Positions 39,027 to 50,285 of a DNA stretch of 64,000 nucleotides are shown here, piece by piece (position 1 is the stretch's first letter; the number at the start of each line of letters is the position of its first letter). This DNA is from Escherichia coli (lineage in GTDB: Bacteria > Pseudomonadota > Gammaproteobacteria > Enterobacterales > Enterobacteriaceae). A model generated the notes under the pieces. That model did no database searches. It was not told the DNA's origin and saw only the letters and a program-made list of their open reading frames with translations. The stretch lies in the NCBI RefSeq assembly GCF_003018115.1, contig NZ_CP027457.1; one strand, written 5' to 3'. A program made the translations under genes and the position numbers.

Positions 39027-40388
39027 ATGACTCGGAGTGAAATAAACGTCTGGGATGAGAGAAGAGGTACCAATAGTCATCGAGTGGAGGAGATTCGATC
39101 TGAAGCTCAGCACGACCTTTCTCGATTGATTCACTCGTCTGCTTTCAGACGATTACAATCCAAAACACAGGTTCTTGGTCTGGGTGAAAGTGATTTCTAC
39201 CGCACACGACTGACTCATTCTATGGAAGTCGCACAAATCGGTTCAGGTCTTCTTGCTAAGTTGAAAATAAAATATAAAGGTAAAGAGCAAGAGCAATTTT
39301 TACCAGATAACGCTCTTATGCAGGCAGTATGTCTCGCACATGATATTGGACATCCTCCATTTGGTCACGGCGGTGAGGTAGCTCTTAACTACTGTATGCA
39401 GGATTACGGTGGTTTTGAAGGAAACGGTCAGACGCTTCGCATTCTCTCGAAACTAGATAAGTATACCTTAGAACACGGACTCGATCCTACACGCAGACTT
39501 CTGCTAGGCATACTGAAATATCCGGTTAAATACTCGGAGCTAGTGGTTACAAAAGACAGAATCCCGGTCACTATCGGATCACCAAACTGGCTCTTTAAGT
39601 CATCTGATTTTAAACCTCCAAAATGCTATCTAGATTCAGAATGCGATGTTGTAAAATTTGCTCTCTCACCATTTACTGAACAGGATCGGAGGCTTTTTAC
39701 TTCCGTTGAAGATGGTCAAACTAAATCCGATCATAAAAAAGCTTCTTATAAAGCTCTCGATACAACTATAATGGATCTTGCCGATGAAATTTCGTATTCG
39801 CTGCACGATTTGGAGGATGCTATTTCTCTCGGAATGGTGACACGAGAAATGTGGATGGAGCATTTCAGTGAACATGAAACCCTATTTACTAACTGCCATG
39901 GAAAAATATTTTCCGAAACATGCCAATCTGTAGCGGATAGCCTTTTTGGTGAAAGTTACAAGAGAAAAGAGTGCATCGGGATGCTGGTTCACCTGATGAT
40001 TACAAGCGTTGAGCTTATTACAAAGAATCCAGCATTCGAATGTGGCATGCTCAAATATAATGCGGTCCTTCCGGAAGCGGTCGAAGCACTACGGTTGAAA
40101 ATTTTCAAACTGGTCAAAAATAAAGTAATTAAGCATGAAAATGTACAGCAGCTTGAATTCAAGGGACAAAAGTTGATTGTTGAGCTCTTCGGTGTGTTGG
40201 CGAACGATCCGTGTCGGTTTCTACCTGCCTCAACGAGGGAAATTTACGAGCGGCAGACTAGCTTAGACAAGAAGGCTGGTATGCGAGTCATTTGCGACTA
40301 TGTTTCAGGGATGACTGATGACTATGCAACAAAGCTTTATGAGAAGATCCTTATTCCACGCAAAGGGTCTATTTTTGACCATCTCTAA
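39027..40388 (+). CDS. dGTPase-family HD-domain dNTP triphosphohydrolase
   Basis: ORF 39000..40388; ATG 39027 follows aggaa; motifs IHSSAFRRLQSKTQV, YRTRLTHSMEVAQIG, HDIGHPPFGHGGE, DLADEISYSLHDLEDA. Confidence 0.85.
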   Translation: MTRSEINVWDERRGTNSHRVEEIRSEAQHDLSRLIHSSAFRRLQSKTQVLGLGESDFYRTRLTHSMEVAQIGSGLLAKLKIKYKGKEQEQFLPDNALMQAVCLAHDIGHPPFGHGGEVALNYCMQDYGGFEGNGQTLRILSKLDKYTLEHGLDPTRRLLLGILKYPVKYSELVVTKDRIPVTIGSPNWLFKSSDFKPPKCYLDSECDVVKFALSPFTEQDRRLFTSVEDGQTKSDHKKASYKALDTTIMDLADEISYSLHDLEDAISLGMVTREMWMEHFSEHETLFTNCHGKIFSETCQSVADSLFGESYKRKECIGMLVHLMITSVELITKNPAFECGMLKYNAVLPEAVEALRLKIFKLVKNKVIKHENVQQLEFKGQKLIVELFGVLANDPCRFLPASTREIYERQTSLDKKAGMRVICDYVSGMTDDYATKLYEKILIPRKGSIFDHL

Positions 40389-41414: not shown

Positions 41415-41660
41415 ATGAATATGAATGAAGATGAGATTTATCGCCATATCCGGCAGGCACTTTCCAGTGCGCCGCGTAACCAGTACACCGTCGAGCTACA
41501 CCTGCAAATGATTAAATATGCCGACGAACTGGAACACATTACGGCAAAAGCCTTTTGCGAAGGCACCGGTCTGAGCCAGAGCCTCGGTACCGAATTCAGC
41601 AAAATGCGTAACTTAACCCGTCGGTTGAAGGCCGCCGGTCTGAATACCGATCTGCTGTAA
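41415..41660 (+). CDS. small putative HTH protein preceding hsdM
   Basis: ORF 41355..41660; ATG 41415 gives 81 aa MNMNEDEIYRHIRQALSS...ITAKAFCEGTGLSQSLGTEFSKMRNLTRRLKAAG (HTH-like by eye). Confidence 0.6.
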   Translation: MNMNEDEIYRHIRQALSSAPRNQYTVELHLQMIKYADELEHITAKAFCEGTGLSQSLGTEFSKMRNLTRRLKAAGLNTDLL

Positions 41661-41699: not shown

Positions 41700-44138
41700 A
41701 TGGCTATCAAAAAAACCGAACTCTATTCTTCCCTGTGGGCAAGCTGCGACGAACTGCGTGGCGGGATGGACGCCAGCCAGTACAAAGACTATGTACTGAC
41801 CCTGCTGTTTATGAAGTACGTTTCCGATAAGTATAAAGGCGATCCTTACGGGATGATCGTGATACCCAAAGGAGCCAGCTTTGACGATATGGTTGCGCTG
41901 AAAAATGACAAAGAGATCGGCGACAAAATCAACAAAATCATCCACAAGCTGGCGGAAGAGAACGGCCTGAAGGGCGTCATCGACGAAGCCGACTTTAACG
42001 ACGAAGATAAGCTCGGCAAAGGCAAGGAAATGATTGACCGCCTGAGCAAGCTTGTCGGTATCTTTGAAGGGTTAGATCTCTCCAGCAACCGGGCCGAAGG
42101 CGACGATCTGTTGGGCGATGCCTATGAATATCTGATGCGTCACTTCGCAACCGAATCCGGCAAGAGTAAAGGGCAGTTTTACACTCCGGCGGAGGTGTCA
42201 CGTATTCTGGCGAAGGTGATTGGTATTACTCCCGATACGCCGCGAGATGCAACGGTTTATGACCCAACCTGTGGCTCTGGTTCGCTGCTGTTGAAAGTGA
42301 ATGATGAAGCCCGGCGCGGACTATCGATTTTCGGCCAGGAGATGGATAACGCTACCAGTGCACTGGCGCGGATGAACATGATTCTGCATAACAATGCCAC
42401 CGCGAAAATCTGGCAGGGTAATACGCTGAGCGATCCGCAGTGGAAAGAGGCGAACGGCAAACTGAAAGCCTTCGATTTTGCCGTGGCGAACCCGCCTTTT
42501 TCCAATAAAAACTGGACCAACGGGTTGACGCCGAAAAAAGATCCGTTTGAACGCTTCGGCTGGGGCATTCCGCCGGAGAAAAACGGCGATTATGCTTTTT
42601 TGCTGCATATCATTAAAAGCCTGAAAAGTACCGGCAAAGGCGCGGTGATCCTGCCCCATGGCGTACTGTTTCGCGGTAACGCCGAGGCAAATATCCGTGA
42701 AAATCTAATCAAGCAGGGCTATATCAAAGGCGTTATTGGTTTGCCGGCCAACCTGTTTTACGGCACCGGCATCCCGGCGTGCATTATTGTGATTGATAAA
42801 GAGCACGCCCACAGCCGCAAAGGCATTTTTATGATCGACGCCAGTCGGGGCTTTATCAAAGATGGCAACAAGAACCGCCTGCGTAGCCGAGATATTCACC
42901 GCATTGTGGACGTGTTCAACCATCAGCGAACGGTGCCGGGCTACAGCCGGATGGTGCCCTCCAGCGAGATCGCCGGAAATGATTACAACCTGAATATTCC
43001 TCGCTATATCGAGAGCGGCGAGCCGGAAGATTTGCACGATCTGACCGCGCACTTACAGGGCGGTATTCCAGCACGCGATGTGGATGCTTTGCAGGATTAC
43101 TGGCGGGTATTCCCTGCCCTGCGCAACGTGCTGTTTGCTGACGACCGTTCCGGTTACTGTCGGGCGCAGGTGAACGCGCAGCAGGTGAAACCAACCATTC
43201 TGGCACATCAGGAGTTTAAGGATTTTGCCACCCGCAGCCTGCTACCGTTTAAAGCGTGGGTGAAAGAGGCAAGTCTGGAAGAGATTCGCAAAGGTGATAA
43301 ACCCAAAGCGCTGATCCACGATATCAGCGAGATGTTGCTTGTGCAGTACGCCAACAGTGAGTTGCTGAACAAGTACAGCGTGTACCAGATCCTGATGGAT
43401 TACTGGGCTGATGTCATGCAGGACGATGTGTATGTGATTATGCAGGATGGCTGGCAAGCCGCCGCGCAAATCCGCGAGCTTCAACCGGTGAAAGGCAAAG
43501 ATGGCAAAAACATCTGGAAAGAAACGCACGATTTCGAGTTTACCAAACAGCGCTACAAGGCCGATGTGCTACCCCGTTCACTAGTGGAAATTCGCTGCTT
43601 CCCGGAACTGCTGGATACGTTGAACCGCGCGCAGGAGCGCAGTGAAGAAGCCAGTCGTCAGCTAGCGGAACTCATCGAGGAGCAGGCAGGGGAAGAGGAT
43701 CTGCTGGCTGAGGCGAAGAACGATAAAGATAAGGTGACGCAAAAGCTGGTGAATGCCCGTCTGGCACAGTTGAAGAAAACCCCTGCCGACCCAGATGAGC
43801 TGGCAGTGCTGAACCGCTGTCTGGCGCTGATTAAGGCCGAGGCCAGTGCGAAAAAAGCGCTGAAAGCCGCACAGGAAGCGTTGGATCGAGCGGTATTTAA
43901 ACATTATCCCACGCTGGATGAAACAGCGATTAAAACGCTGGTAGTGCAGGATAAGTGGCTGGCAACGTTGCAGGCAGGAATCAAGGCGGAGATTGAGCGT
44001 ATTACCCAGCAACTGGCGTCGCGCGTAAAGGAGCTGGAAGAGCGTTATGCTGAACCGTTGCCAGCGCTTGAAGCCTCCGTTGAGGCGTTGAGCGAGAAAG
44101 TGGCCGGGCATTTGCGGGCGATGGGGCTGGAGTGGTGA
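41700..44138 (+). CDS. hsdM: type I R-M methyltransferase subunit (long form, 812 aa)
   Basis: AdoMet motif VYDPTCGSGSLLL and catalytic motif FAVANPPFS; about 330-aa charged, helical-looking C-terminal extension. Confidence 0.92.
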   Translation: MAIKKTELYSSLWASCDELRGGMDASQYKDYVLTLLFMKYVSDKYKGDPYGMIVIPKGASFDDMVALKNDKEIGDKINKIIHKLAEENGLKGVIDEADFNDEDKLGKGKEMIDRLSKLVGIFEGLDLSSNRAEGDDLLGDAYEYLMRHFATESGKSKGQFYTPAEVSRILAKVIGITPDTPRDATVYDPTCGSGSLLLKVNDEARRGLSIFGQEMDNATSALARMNMILHNNATAKIWQGNTLSDPQWKEANGKLKAFDFAVANPPFSNKNWTNGLTPKKDPFERFGWGIPPEKNGDYAFLLHIIKSLKSTGKGAVILPHGVLFRGNAEANIRENLIKQGYIKGVIGLPANLFYGTGIPACIIVIDKEHAHSRKGIFMIDASRGFIKDGNKNRLRSRDIHRIVDVFNHQRTVPGYSRMVPSSEIAGNDYNLNIPRYIESGEPEDLHDLTAHLQGGIPARDVDALQDYWRVFPALRNVLFADDRSGYCRAQVNAQQVKPTILAHQEFKDFATRSLLPFKAWVKEASLEEIRKGDKPKALIHDISEMLLVQYANSELLNKYSVYQILMDYWADVMQDDVYVIMQDGWQAAAQIRELQPVKGKDGKNIWKETHDFEFTKQRYKADVLPRSLVEIRCFPELLDTLNRAQERSEEASRQLAELIEEQAGEEDLLAEAKNDKDKVTQKLVNARLAQLKKTPADPDELAVLNRCLALIKAEASAKKALKAAQEALDRAVFKHYPTLDETAIKTLVVQDKWLATLQAGIKAEIERITQQLASRVKELEERYAEPLPALEASVEALSEKVAGHLRAMGLEW

Positions 44139-45445
44139 TGGTGGATTTAATGGTGAATGAGCAACGATCAGGTACGGCGGGGAAAGATGTGCCTGCGGGG
44201 TATAAGCTGACTGAGGTGGGGGTGATTCCTGAGGATTGGGTAGTAATCTCTATTGATGACTGTACAACCAAAGTTGGTAGTGGAAAAACACCAACTGGTG
44301 GAGCATCTGTTTATATTGATAGCGGACGCCCTTTTGTCCGTAGCCAAAATGTTGATTGGGGAAGATTAGATCTCGCCGATGTCGTACATATTACAGATGA
44401 AACCCATAACACATTCTCTGGTTCTGAAATTCAGCAAGATGATGTTTTACTCAACATAACGGGAGCATCTATCGGCCGATGCGCTAAAGCTGATTTTAGG
44501 GTTATAGGTGGTAATGTTAACCAACATGTTTGCATCATCAGAACAGAGGCAAAAAAACTCTCCCCATCCTTACTGGTTGAATTAATCAATTCAAATTATG
44601 GACAAAACCAGATTGATAGTTATCAAGCCGGAGGAAACAGAGAAGGACTGAATTTTTCTCAAGTTAAAAATCTTAAGTTTGCTATTACACCAAACTCCCT
44701 TGAACAAACGGAAATTGTCAGAACATTAAATGATATTAATGCATTCACTCTCGCTCTGGAAAACTTAATTGCTAAAAAACAGGCCATAAAAGCCGCTGCT
44801 ATGCAACAACTACTCACCGGTAAAACCCGTTTGCCGCAGTTTGCGTTGCGCAAAGATGGATCTGCTAAGAGATATAAAAAGAGCAAGTTGGGGGAGACTC
44901 CAGAAGATTGGGCAGTTAATAATATTGGAGATTTATTCTCCATTACCGCAGGAGGAGATTTAAGACAGTCTGAATTCTCTAATATTCAATCTGAAAAACA
45001 TCTTTACCCTATTTATTCCAATGCAATTAGTCATTATGGTTTATATGGCTATTGCCAGAGTTATGATTATGTTGGTGACTATCTAACAATCACTGCGAGG
45101 GGAGGAATCGGCCATGCCGTGGCAAGAAAAGGAAGATTCTGTGCAATTGGACGATTATTAGTTCTTAGTCCAAAAGGAGATTCAAACGTAAAATTTTATG
45201 AAGGGTATATAAACCAATACTTATCATTTGCAAATGAGAGCACTGGAGTCCCTCAACTTACAGCTCCTCAAGTTGCAAAATATCCGGTTGTTTCCCCATG
45301 CATTGAAGAACAAACCGCCATCGCCACCATCCTCTCCGATATGGACAAGGAAATTCAGACCCTGCAACAACGTCTGGACAAAACCCGTCAGCTTAAACAG
45401 GGGATGATGCAGGAGCTGTTAACCGGGAAAACACGCTTAATATAA
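44135..45445 (+). CDS. hsdS: type I R-M specificity subunit
   Basis: Start overlaps hsdM stop; two AT-rich variable TRDs separated by conserved [26 protein letters not shown] and ending [17 protein letters not shown]. Confidence 0.92.
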
Positions 45446-45456
45446 AAGGGAAACCT

Positions 45457-46107
45457 ATGACTACAGCGCCAGCCTCAATCCGCAAAAAGCCCTGATCTGG
45501 CGTATCGTCCATCGGGACAATATCCCGTGGATTCTGGACAATGGTCTGCACTGCGGCAACAGCCCGGTGCAGGCTGCTAACTGGATCAATATCGGCAACC
45601 CGGAGCTTATCGGCAAGCACGCCGGACATCCGGTACCTGTCGGGACGGGCGGGACACTGCGTGACTATGTGCCATTTTATTTTACCCCCTTCTCGCCAAT
45701 GCTGATGAACATCCACAGCGGACGTGGCGGCATTAAGCAACGCCCCAATGAAGAGATCGTTATTCTGGTCAGCAGCCTGCGGCACGTGGCAGCACACGAC
45801 GTGCCCTTCGTGTTTACCGACAGCCATGCTTACTATAACTGGACCAACTACTACACCAGTCTGGATAGTCTGGACCAGATCGACTGGCCCATTTTGCAGG
45901 CACGGGACTTTCGCCGCGATCCAGACGATCCGGCTAAATTTGAACGCTATCAGGCAGAGGCGCTAATCTGGCAACACTGCCCGATCTCGCTGCTGGATGG
46001 GATAATTTGTTACAGCGAAGAGGTCAGGTTACAATTAGAACAATGGTTGTTTCAGCGTAATCTAACAATGTCCGTTCACACACGGGCTGGATTGGTACTT
46101 CTCATGA
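45457..46107 (+). pseudogene. darT: DarT ssDNA ADP-ribosyltransferase toxin, out of frame at both ends
   Basis: ATG 45457 (frame 1) stops after 12 codons; body in frame 0 ([19 protein letters not shown]...[16 protein letters not shown]...[11 protein letters not shown]...RYQAEALIW...) aligns with recalled Thermus DarT; native-looking end ..DWYFS* (TGA 46105-46107) is back in frame 1. Confidence 0.8.
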
Positions 46108-47171
46108 TCACATATACACAAGGCAATTTACTGGACGCACCGGTGGAAGCTCTGGTGAATACGGTTAATACCGTCGGTGTCATGGGGAAAGGCATCGCGT
46201 TGATGTTTAAAGAGCGCTTCCACGAAAATATGAAAGCCTATGCCCTCGCCTGCAAACAAAAGCAGGTGATCACCGGCAAAATGTTCATTACCGAAACCGG
46301 GGAACTGATGGGACCGCGCTGGATTGTTAATTTTCCGACCAAACAGCACTGGCGCGCTGACTCCCGCATGGGGTGGATTGAAGATGGCTTACAAGACTTA
46401 CGTCGATTTTTGATTGAAGAGAACGTGCAATCCATCGCCATTCCACCGCTGGGCGCAGGCAACGGTGACTTGAACTGGCCGGACGTTCGGGCGCAGATTG
46501 AATCTGCCCTTGGCGACCTTCAGGACGTTGATATCCTGATTTACCAACCAACTGAAAAATACCAGAACGTTGCCAAAAGCACTGGCGTAAAAAAGCTCAC
46601 TCCCGCCAGAGCCGCCATCGCTGAACTGGTGCGTCGCTACTGGGTATTGGGGATGGAGTGCAGCCTACTGGAAATCCAGAAACTGGCCTGGCTGTTACAA
46701 CGCGCCCTTAAGCAGCATCAACAGGACGATATCCTCAAACTGCGGTTTGAAGCTCACTATTATGGCCCCTATGCGCCCAATCTGAACCATCTGCTTAATG
46801 CGCTGGACGGCACCTATCTTAAAGCCGAGAAACGCATCCCGGACAGCCAACCGCTGGATGTGATCTGGTTTAACGATCAGAAAAAAGAACACGTTAATGC
46901 GTATCTGAACAGCGAAGCCAGAGAGTGGCTACCGGCGCTGGAGCAGGTCAGCCAGTTAATTGACGGCTTTGAATCGCCGTTTGGTCTGGAGCTGCTGGCA
47001 ACCGTAGACTGGTTGCTGAGCCGTGGCGAATGTCAACCAACACTGGATTCCGTTAAGGAAGGGCTGCACCAGTGGCCTGCGGGCGAACACTGGGCCAGCC
47101 GTAAGTTGAGGCTGTTTGATAATAATAATCTGCAATTTGCCATTAACCGCGTAATGGAGTTCCATTGCTGA
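46104..47171 (+). CDS. darG: DarG macrodomain antitoxin
   Basis: 355 aa [39 protein letters not shown]...[12 protein letters not shown]...[14 protein letters not shown], closely parallel to recalled Thermus DarG; ATG overlaps the darT TGA (ATGA). Confidence 0.9.
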
Positions 47172-47189
47172 GGGTTTAAGGAGCGCCTT

Positions 47190-50100
47190 TTGAGTACCGT
47201 GGGCCAGCGCGAACGCGCCACACAGCAGCGTCTGATTCAGTTTTTTGTTGAAGATTTAGGTTACCGCCATCTGAGTCACCGCACCGGGTACACCGGGAAC
47301 AGCAACATCGACACTAATATACTGAGCGCGTGGCTAAAACGGCGCGGCGTTAATGATACGTTGATCACCCGGGCGTTGCGGCAACTGGATTCCGCCGCCG
47401 CTCTGGGCGAAGGCAAAAAACTCTATTACGCCAATAAAGAGGTCTATCGCCTGCTACGTTACGGCGTGAAAGACAAAGAAGGCGCAGGCGAGCAGAACCA
47501 AACCGTGTGGCTGATTGACTGGGCCAACCCACAAGCCAATGATTTCGCCATCGCCGATGAGGTGACGGTCAAAGGCGAGTACTGCAAGCGCCCGGATCTG
47601 GTGCTGTACGTTAACGGCATTGCGCTGGGCGTGATTGAACTTAAGCGTTCGTCAGTGCACGTCAGCGAAGGCATCCGGCAGAATCTCGATAATCAAAAGA
47701 AAACCTTTATCCGCGATTTCTTCACCACTATGCAGTTAGTGATGGCGGGCAACGATACGCAGGGCCTGCGCTACGGCACCATCGAAACCCCGGAAAAATA
47801 CTATCTGGAGTGGAAAGAAGATAATCCAGGCGACTATACACATAAACTCGACTTTCATTTAAGTCGTCTGTGTAGCAAATCCAGGCTGTTGGATATCGTC
47901 CATAATTACATTGCCTTTGATGTCGGAGTGAAAAAACTCTGCCGCCATAATCAGTTCTTCGGCGTCGAGGCGGCTAAACAACATATTGCCCGTCGTGAAG
48001 GCGGTATTATCTGGCACACACAGGGATCGGGTAAAAGCCTGACGATGGTCTGGCTGGCGAAGTGGATCCGTGAAAATGTGCCAAACTCCCGCGTGTTGAT
48101 TGTGACTGACCGCACCGAACTGGATGAACAGATCGAAAGCGTGTTTATGGGCGTGAATGAAGATATTTATCGCACCTCCAGCGGCAACGATCTTATCGCA
48201 ACGCTCAATCATCCTAACCCGTGGCTCATTTGCTCGCTGGTGCATAAATTTGGTCGTCGCAGCGAAGCTGAAGACAATGCGGCTACCGACGCCTTTATCA
48301 CCGAATTACAGCAGTCCCTGACGAAAACATTCCGCGCCAAAGGCGATCTGTTTGTTTTTGTGGACGAGTGCCACCGCACACAATCCGGCAAGCTGCATAA
48401 CGCCATGACTGCCATTCTGCCGGACGCCCTGTTTATCGGTTTTACCGGCACACCGCTGATGAAGAAAGATAAGAAGAAGTCGGTTGAGGTGTTCGGCCCT
48501 TATATCCATACCTATAAATTTGATGAAGCGGTGGCCGACGGTGTGGTGCTGGATCTGCGCTACGAGGCACGCGATATTGACCAGTATCTGACATCAGAGA
48601 AAAAGGTCGATGACTGGTTTGAAGCCAAGACTCGCGGTTTGTCGAATTTAGCCAGGACCCAGCTTAAGCAAAAGTGGGGATCAATGCAGAAGCTGCTCTC
48701 CAGCAAGTCGAGGCTGGAGCAGATCGTTAACGACATTTTGCTGGATATGGATACCCGTCCACGCCTGATGGACGGGCGCGGCAACGCCATGCTGGTATGC
48801 AGCAGTATCTATCAAGCCTGCAAGGTTTACGAGATGTTCAGCCAGACCGAGCTGGCAGGAAAAGTAGCGATTGTGACCAGCTATCGCCCCGATGCCGCCA
48901 GCATCAAAGGCGAAGAAACGGGCGAAGGGTTAACGGAGAAACTCTCTAAACACGCCACCTATCGTAAAATGTTGGCTGACTATTTTGAACAAAGTGAAGA
49001 GAAGGCCGCCGCACGCATTACCGAGTTCGAGCGGGAAGTGAAACAGCGTTTTATTGAAGAGCCGGGGCAAATGCGCCTGCTTATCGTGGTGGATAAGCTG
49101 CTGACTGGCTTTGACGCGCCGTCCGCCACCTATCTCTACATTGATAAAACCATGACCGACCATACGCTGTTTCAGGCGATTTGTCGGGTGAACCGGCTGG
49201 ACGGTGAGGATAAAGAGTATGGCTATATTATCGATTATAAAGATCTGTTCCGTTCGCTGGATAAAGCGATTACCGATTACACCACGGGCGCGTTTGATGA
49301 TTACGATCGGGACGATGTGGCCGGGTTGCTGAAAGACAGGCTGGAGCAGGCGCAACTGGATCTCGACAGCGCGCTGGAGATGGTTCGCAGCTTATGTGAA
49401 CCCGTCAAAACCCCGCGCAGCCTGCAGGACTATCAGCACTATTTTTGCGGTGAATCAGGAGAGAATCAGACTTCGTTAAACGAAAAAGAGGCGCTGCGCC
49501 TGACATTTTACCAGTGCGTCGCCCGTCTGCTACGCGCTTATGCCAGCATCGCCAATGAAATGCCGGAAGCAGGCTACACTGCCGAAGAGGTAGAGAGCAT
49601 TCGCGCCGAAGTCGCTGAATTCGAAAAACTGCGCTATGAGATTAAGCTGACCAGCGGCGATCTTCTGGATATGAAGCGCTTTGAACCCGCTATGCGTCAT
49701 TTACTGGATATGTATGTTCGCGCCGATGATAGCGAAGTGCTGATGGATTTTGAAGAGTTAAGTCTGATTGAACTGATTGTCGAGAAAGGCTTGGCGGCGA
49801 CCGTCGCCCTGCCGGATGATATCCGTAATAATCAGGATGCGATGGCGGAAACCATCGAAAACAACGTGCGCAAAACCATCGTGGATGAAAACCCGGTTAA
49901 CCCAAAATACTATGGACGCATGTCGCAGCTGCTGGATGAACTGATTACCCTTCGCCGACAAAATGCGCTCAATTATCAGCAGTATCTGGAACGTATCCGC
50001 GATTTGTGTAAACAAGTCATCCGCCCGGAGCAAACCGCCGGAGCGTGCTACCCTGCCACCATGGATACACAAGCAAAGCGCGCCTTCTATGATAACTTCG

Positions 50101-50285
50101 GCCACGACGAGGTACTGGCGACCCGCATAGATACGACGATTCGCTATACCAAAAGGGCAGAGTGGATTGGCGATCGTTTTAAAGAACGGGAAATTGCCAA
50201 CGCATTACGTGAAGAGACCGCCAGCTATAATATTGATATTGATGAGGTGATAGCGCTTGCCCGTCAGCAGAAGGAATATCACTGA
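47190..50285 (+). CDS. hsdR: type I R-M restriction/translocase subunit
   Basis: 1031 aa; nuclease PD...ELK (RPDLVLYVNGIALGVIELKRS), Walker A TQGSGKSLTM, DECH box VFVDECHRTQSG; TTG 47190 follows aaggag. Confidence 0.92.
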   Translation: MSTVGQRERATQQRLIQFFVEDLGYRHLSHRTGYTGNSNIDTNILSAWLKRRGVNDTLITRALRQLDSAAALGEGKKLYYANKEVYRLLRYGVKDKEGAGEQNQTVWLIDWANPQANDFAIADEVTVKGEYCKRPDLVLYVNGIALGVIELKRSSVHVSEGIRQNLDNQKKTFIRDFFTTMQLVMAGNDTQGLRYGTIETPEKYYLEWKEDNPGDYTHKLDFHLSRLCSKSRLLDIVHNYIAFDVGVKKLCRHNQFFGVEAAKQHIARREGGIIWHTQGSGKSLTMVWLAKWIRENVPNSRVLIVTDRTELDEQIESVFMGVNEDIYRTSSGNDLIATLNHPNPWLICSLVHKFGRRSEAEDNAATDAFITELQQSLTKTFRAKGDLFVFVDECHRTQSGKLHNAMTAILPDALFIGFTGTPLMKKDKKKSVEVFGPYIHTYKFDEAVADGVVLDLRYEARDIDQYLTSEKKVDDWFEAKTRGLSNLARTQLKQKWGSMQKLLSSKSRLEQIVNDILLDMDTRPRLMDGRGNAMLVCSSIYQACKVYEMFSQTELAGKVAIVTSYRPDAASIKGEETGEGLTEKLSKHATYRKMLADYFEQSEEKAAARITEFEREVKQRFIEEPGQMRLLIVVDKLLTGFDAPSATYLYIDKTMTDHTLFQAICRVNRLDGEDKEYGYIIDYKDLFRSLDKAITDYTTGAFDDYDRDDVAGLLKDRLEQAQLDLDSALEMVRSLCEPVKTPRSLQDYQHYFCGESGENQTSLNEKEALRLTFYQCVARLLRAYASIANEMPEAGYTAEEVESIRAEVAEFEKLRYEIKLTSGDLLDMKRFEPAMRHLLDMYVRADDSEVLMDFEELSLIELIVEKGLAATVALPDDIRNNQDAMAETIENNVRKTIVDENPVNPKYYGRMSQLLDELITLRRQNALNYQQYLERIRDLCKQVIRPEQTAGACYPATMDTQAKRAFYDNFGHDEVLATRIDTTIRYTKRAEWIGDRFKEREIANALREETASYNIDIDEVIALARQQKEYH

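Follow-up and report, generated by a model that had tools for sequence, protein, structure and literature searches.

Is the darT toxin gene in the 64,000-nucleotide stretch of Escherichia coli DNA analysed here (the window) recoded, or is it broken? Its start and its body lie in different frames. A Shine-Dalgarno-like AAGGG (45446-45450) sits 6 nt 5' of ATG 45457, which is itself 11 nt past hsdS and opens an ORF of 12 codons ending at TGA 45493-45495; the DarT body is in the -1 frame relative to this ATG, and a frame scan finds that frame open from the stop at 45438-45440, with no ATG, GTG or TTG between there and GTG 45567. All of this had been described in an earlier note on the same DNA, and all of it holds. 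That note offered three readings of the junction, namely a one-nucleotide A6 to A5 deletion, a homopolymer sequencing error, or recoding that keeps toxin synthesis at a low fixed ratio, with decay as the default. We are highly confident that darT here is a dead pseudogene, carrying a 7-nt deletion at its start together with the substitutions R57H and H71R and the insertion of one T. Decay was the right default and the frames were correctly observed, but the cause is the deletion at the start codon rather than anything in the A-run, and the start-codon lesion, the second frameshift (near 46092) and both substitutions in the active site had been missed.

The genes on either side are those of the RRDM island of EPEC, which comprises rptR, hsdM, hsdS, darT, darG, hsdR and a gene for an M48 peptidase (PMC12255303), and the annotation of an identical genome, set against that description, gives the same order (Table 1). 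The short ORF at its head agrees in position with RptR of the EPEC island and has no NCBIfam match. All six island ORFs other than darT are annotated as intact in the identical genome. Positions 45380-47200 are 100% identical to E. coli 2014C-4135, a genome in which RefSeq labels darT a "frameshifted" pseudogene. The pseudogene had in this sense already been flagged by public annotation, and the value of the present analysis lies mostly in annotating it correctly. The identical-genome annotation also places an anti-phage dGTPase gene and a tyrosine recombinase fragment upstream of the island (window 39027-40388) and several IS66-family copies downstream of it, past 51000; the island and its flanks are a composite defence island.

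Table 1. Features of the darTG locus and its island, in window coordinates.
Feature	Position	Strand	Basis or remark
Putative ORF at the rptR position	41421..41660	+	HTH-like protein WP_024175231.1 in identical genome NZ_CP027310
hsdM, type I R-M methylase subunit	41700..44138	+	ORF list and annotation of identical genome
hsdS, type I R-M specificity subunit	44132..45445	+	ORF list and annotation; stop TAA 45443-45445
Shine-Dalgarno-like AAGGG of darT	45446..45450	+	Same sequence and 6-nt spacer (AAACCT) as intact E2348/69 darT
Lesion 1, single leftover CCTATGA unit	45454..45460	+	Alignment to intact alleles
darT pseudogene body, from Tyr3 codon to former ATGA stop/start overlap	45456..46107	+	NCBIfam, Pfam, RefSeq annotation
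Out-of-frame 12-codon ORF on the darT ribosome-binding site	45457..45495	+	Translation; TGA 45493-45495
C_AAA_AAG motif with A5 run	45483..45489	+	Ancestral P-Q-K-A coding; neither a lesion nor a site selected for shifting
Predicted hairpin in VHRDNIPW coding sequence	45507..45532	+	Folding of 45490-45570
Accidental DarT-body/DarG ORF, 534 aa	45567..47171	+	ORF list; made by lesion 3
Lesion 2, R57H at the catalytic arginine	45618..45620	+	CAC versus CGT in intact alleles
H71R, at the position of Thermus active-site H65	45660..45662	+	CGT; active-site listing in PMC9967889
Lesion 3, +1 T insertion, GGATGG to GGATTGG	46092..46093	+	Alignment to intact alleles
darG antitoxin	46104..47171	+	NCBIfam antitoxin_DarG equivalog
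hsdR, type I R-M endonuclease subunit	47190..50285	+	ORF list and annotation of identical genome

The start of the gene was aligned with two intact references, the darT of E. coli DA33137 and that of EPEC E2348/69, the subject of experimental work as an active toxin (PMC7003065, PMC12255303). The intact 5' end reads aaaCCTATGGCCTATGACTAC and codes for M-A-Y-D-Y, whereas the window reads aaaCCTATGACTAC: the tandem pair of units, CCTATGG followed by CCTATGA, that both references carry is down by one 7-nt unit in the window. With that unit the original start, ATG-GCC-TAT-GAC (MAYDYS...), has disappeared. The loss comprised a complete unit and so left the Shine-Dalgarno sequence and its 6-nt spacer as they were, which is why the start looks good yet lies one frame off the DarT body. 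ATG 45457 has its counterpart in intact darT as well, embedded out of frame in the codons TAT-GAC. A gap of 7 or 8 nt at the start and the extra T near the end account for the whole difference in length between broken and intact genes. The lesion separating the frames is thus the one at 45454-45460, not the A-run, and 45457-45495 is simply where the two frames overlap.

As to how this came about, the mismatch of frames is best explained by slipped-strand loss of one 7-nt unit from a repeat spanning the start codon. The retained Shine-Dalgarno sequence would then serve the formerly out-of-frame ATG, and ribosomes would make a 12-residue peptide and terminate at 45493-45495. Reversible phase variation at the CCTATGR repeat was considered and rejected: with one unit left, slippage cannot restore a second, and the other lesions are irreversible.

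The body downstream of this lesion is recognisably that of DarT, scoring 245.9 bits against the NCBIfam toxin_DarT equivalog (NF048013, cut-off 150) and E = 1.3e-40 against Pfam DarT (PF14487). EPEC DarT aligns with Thermus DarT (PDB 7OMV) over residues 11-216 (HMMER, E = 4.8e-26), and this alignment bears out the resemblance, pointed out earlier, of the N-terminus of the body to the PIYHITHIDNL of the Thermus protein. In the latter, H13, I14, T15, N19, K28 and L30 bind NAD+ (review PMC9967889), so that a start at GTG 45567 would remove part of the NAD+ pocket, as had been supposed. Like the DarT of Thermus sp. 2.9 and T. aquaticus (PDB 7OMV-7ON0), the window body encodes the NAD-binding N-terminus and the equivalents of Y71, M78, H119 and the catalytic glutamate E160, the segments QAEALIW, DYVPFYF, SPMLM and TDSHAYY all being kept. 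It differs from them in having His for R51 and Arg for H65, and in being untranslatable from its own start, there being no continuous ORF in which a start codon of its own leads into that N-terminus.

The first of these differences puts His at the position of the catalytic arginine. When the window DarT was conceptually repaired at both indels and aligned with 32 intact orthologues, just one of 55 invariant columns was violated, and the violation was R57H. The residue is Arg in 32/32 intact orthologues and in 120/120 database homologues, the latter a set drawn from a search of 5.8 billion proteins and used for the conservation statistics. Position 57 pairs with residue 52 of the 7OMV chain, which is Thermus R51, the chain index being the literature number plus 1 (checked on H13, H65, Y71 and M78). 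R51 polarises NAD+ and takes the N3 proton from thymidine, and its mutation abolishes activity and toxicity (PMC9967889). By analogy with those Thermus mutants, R57H would be expected to cost the protein its catalytic arginine function and, with it, its enzymatic activity. The second substitution, H71R, introduces an arginine that is found in 0/152 homologues, where the residue is N, H, S, G, T, Q or K. R57H and H71R are the sole residues of the body that are unseen in any homologue, and both fall at active-site positions. The change from CGT to CAC at codon 57 needs two base changes. The toxin may accordingly have been detoxified by missense mutation, either ahead of the frameshifts or independently of them.

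At the other end of the gene, intact alleles close with ...HTR[AS]GWYFS-TGA, the stop overlapping the ATG of darG as ATGA. In the window the inserted T turns the C-terminal GWYFS* into GLVLL, the stop is lost, and the frame runs on into darG (MITYTQ...); the GWYF(S) terminus with a stop abutting or overlapping the darG start is thus missing. This is a well-kept terminus: W, Y and F of GWYFS are retained in 117, 119 and 118 of the 120 homologues, respectively, and WYF occurs in Thermus DarT too. The EPEC island is among the closest known systems. Its DNA is 96.8% identical to the window over darT-darG and the DarT bodies differ at 9 of 218 residues (~96% amino acid identity), but in the window allele the 7-nt deletion has taken away the start codon, R57H and H71R are present, and the +1 insertion has done away with the darT-darG stop/start overlap.

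Looking further afield, we compared 31 orthologous loci of other species, which range from Edwardsiella, Phytobacter, Enterobacter, Klebsiella, Xenorhabdus and Dickeya out to Bradyrhizobium. In every one darT is a single ORF with its N-terminus in the body frame, beginning with a start codon followed by A/V-Y/H-D-Y in that frame (31/31), a few codons 5' of the LNP[QE]... motif. The loci end in GWYF(S) against the next ATG and run into a full-length darG, with one exception, an Aquabacterium MAG (locus L021, near 3647), which by a simple rule is the sole locus without full-length darG directly after darT; another start, another partner or a fault in the assembly may be the reason.

Within E. 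coli, the lesions are rare. Short queries spanning each indel covered the 249 E. coli records in which the locus is present. The short start form is present in 5/249, the longer start region in the other 244; likewise the T insertion is present in 5/249, with a single T in the other 244. The carriers are 2014C-4135 (human, USA), C311 (cow), 1303 (bovine), CFIAFB20180511 (food) and STEC2017-197 (human, Switzerland), and the lesions are absent from all intact relatives. In STEC2017-197 (locus L036, 1501-1990) both indels are accompanied by the loss of a further 226 nt of darT, equivalent to window positions 45558-45783. This deletion lies between 8-nt direct repeats, CTGCGGCA, takes out the R57 region together with GTG 45567, and shifts the frame again. 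It is a continuation of neutral decay, and would be expected neither of a recoding signal that is being maintained nor of a fusion protein with a use.

The window body gives a dN/dS of 0.08-0.14 against intact alleles, from which it follows that most of the 3-5% divergence arose under selection, before inactivation. This suggests that the inactivation of darT is recent, and past the lesions listed here the body is, by its low dN/dS, not yet visibly degraded.

What, then, of the motif at which the two frames meet? The A5 run (45484-45488) lies within cgC-AAA-AAG-CCc, and the same A5 (CGCAAAAAGCC) is present in the intact darT of both E2348/69 and DA33137, where the run and its surroundings, CCGCAAAAAGCCCTGATCTGG, are unchanged and read P-Q-K-A-L-I-W. 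Among the 31 orthologous loci of other species A5 is the commonest state and a longer run is never found: the alignment of A5 against A6 that had been proposed as a check returns A5 or shorter throughout, and never A6. The homologous nucleotides in orthologues are CCGCAAAAAGCC, CCGGAAAAAGCC, CAGAAAGC, CAAAAGGC and AAGAAGGC, the last three being among the synonymous variants, so what is conserved at the site is the amino acids and not a slippery heptamer. AAAAAG occurs in 67 copies within the 64-kb window. Judged from these comparisons, C_AAA_AAG is inherited coding sequence, and no more than chance or ancestry would give.

In E. coli, A_AAG is prone to -1 shifts, more so when followed by CC, and can suppress nearby frameshift mutations (PMC5009743); for non-programmed frameshift suppression, efficiencies in the percent range are possible (PMC10861913). 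Some trans-frame product, at trace level, is thus conceivable from the shift-prone A_AAG-CC. The slip product is predicted to have ~571 aa and to consist of an R57H DarT without its C-terminus, fused to its own antitoxin. There is a very small chance that adventitious -1 slippage at AAA_AAG-CC, by a minor share of ribosomes, yields this DarT(R57H)-DarG fusion and so sustains some antitoxin or macrodomain protein after the loss of the translational coupling between darT and darG; the expression state of darG itself is something that we infer.

That the slippage should be programmed, joining the 12-codon ORF to ALIWRIVH... and so setting a low, fixed level of toxin, is another matter, and we consider it highly unlikely. 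In its favour, ATG 45457 comes with a good Shine-Dalgarno sequence, the zero frame stops two codons past the motif, and A_AAG followed by CC is the shift-prone sequence just described, capable of compensating nearby frameshifts. The window further shares with the A_AAA_AAG sites of dnaX and IS911 an AAA_AAG, the single E. coli tRNA-Lys and a 3' CC (PMC5009743). It differs from those sites, however, in having C rather than A at the first position, so that the X_XXY_YYZ heptamer is matched at 6/7 positions, and in having neither a structure 5-8 nt 3' of the motif (folding of 45490-45570) nor a GGAGG-like upstream stimulator in 45460-45482. The heptamer count and the want of a strong hairpin at that distance had both been pointed out before. 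The fold of 45490-45570 has an MFE of -30.3 kcal/mol with z = -1.86, and the nearest hairpin begins 17 nt 3' of the motif, within VHRDNIPW codons that intact alleles share. Further against the proposal, the motif was inherited unchanged and belongs to the normal reading frame of intact alleles, and the two-frame layout is absent from 244/249 E. coli records and from all 31 orthologous loci, each of which has one ORF. Unlike at dnaX and IS911, then, the layout is not kept in relatives and the downstream frame is predicted to encode no functional product: what a shift produced would come without the catalytic Arg and without the conserved C-terminus, in fusion with DarG, and such a catalytically dead fusion could not set a toxin level. 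The sister genome STEC2017-197, finally, has dispensed with 226 nt of the body. The earlier suggestion of recoding at a fixed toxin ratio finds no support in any of this.

Returning to the reading of darT as a dead pseudogene, the ORF created by the third lesion deserves a word of its own. The +1 T opens a continuous frame of 534 aa in which Pfam identifies DarT, Macro and SocA_Panacea domains, and this, with the low dN/dS of the body, might be taken to indicate functional remodelling into an attenuated single-chain DarT-DarG, made from GTG 45567 or by slippage and put to a new role. We find this very hard to credit. GTG 45567 has no Shine-Dalgarno sequence, a start there would drop 37 N-terminal residues that bind NAD+, the catalytic Arg is gone, the 226-nt deletion in STEC2017-197 takes out the GTG and shifts the frame, and there is no fused orthologue among the 31 loci. 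The notion of a designed single-chain system was likewise set aside, as the ORF is conserved neither in the sister genome nor in any orthologue.

Could the gene be truly intact and the lesions an artefact of assembly or sequencing? Indels are the commonest assembly error, but a 7-nt deletion and a change of T to TT are not miscounts of long homopolymers, both indels recur unaltered in five complete genomes that differ in source and country, and they travel together with missense changes. Five independent assemblies with lesions outside homopolymers rule out a sequencing artefact, including the homopolymer error raised earlier, to the point where an intact gene retains only a very slim chance. 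The likelihood that a single-base A6 to A5 deletion killed the toxin is practically nil: it has in its favour that the frames happen to overlap at the A-run and nothing further, and it founders on the A5 of the intact E2348/69 and DA33137 alleles, on the absence of any run beyond A5 from the orthologues in other species (0 cases), and on a length difference that the start gap and the 3' T explain in full.

The dead toxin gene has beside it an antitoxin gene that is still open. DarG is full length (355 aa), scores 443.4 bits against NCBIfam antitoxin_DarG (NF048014, cut-off 250) and has the same residue as EPEC DarG at 347 of 355 positions (98%). Two of its substitutions, P40H and G122D, break columns that are invariant in 31 orthologues, and G122D falls in the GAGNGG loop of the macrodomain. 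On this sequence evidence DarG may also be drifting or decaying now that the toxin is dead, and the two substitutions suggest a drift of the whole darTG module. The pattern is that of toxin-first decay of a type II toxin-antitoxin system, which leaves an orphan antitoxin: the window toxin has several independent lesions beside a full-length antitoxin ORF, and a sister genome of the window has suffered more deletion. In this respect the window shows nothing unusual, save that in the antitoxin, too, two invariant positions are substituted. The locus is a textbook case, found in the TA defence module of a type I R-M island that is intact in other respects, and it illustrates how plain coding sequence, inherited and lying where two frames meet, can pass for a slippery motif. 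A practical consequence is that the five carrier genomes should be scored DarTG-negative in defence inventories despite HMM matches for both genes.

Two minor observations concern the ancestry of this allele. The search of 5.8 billion proteins with the repaired window DarT returned none above 85% identity, though E. coli DarT at ~96% is in RefSeq; close relatives seem to be missing from that set or to have been missed by the search. The differences between the window and other E. coli darT are concentrated at the 5' end, with 23 of 27 in the first ~330 nt (window 45456-45790), and encode SPVQAANW there, as in Edwardsiella and Phytobacter alleles, a distribution which suggests that the window darT may be a recombinant or mosaic allele.
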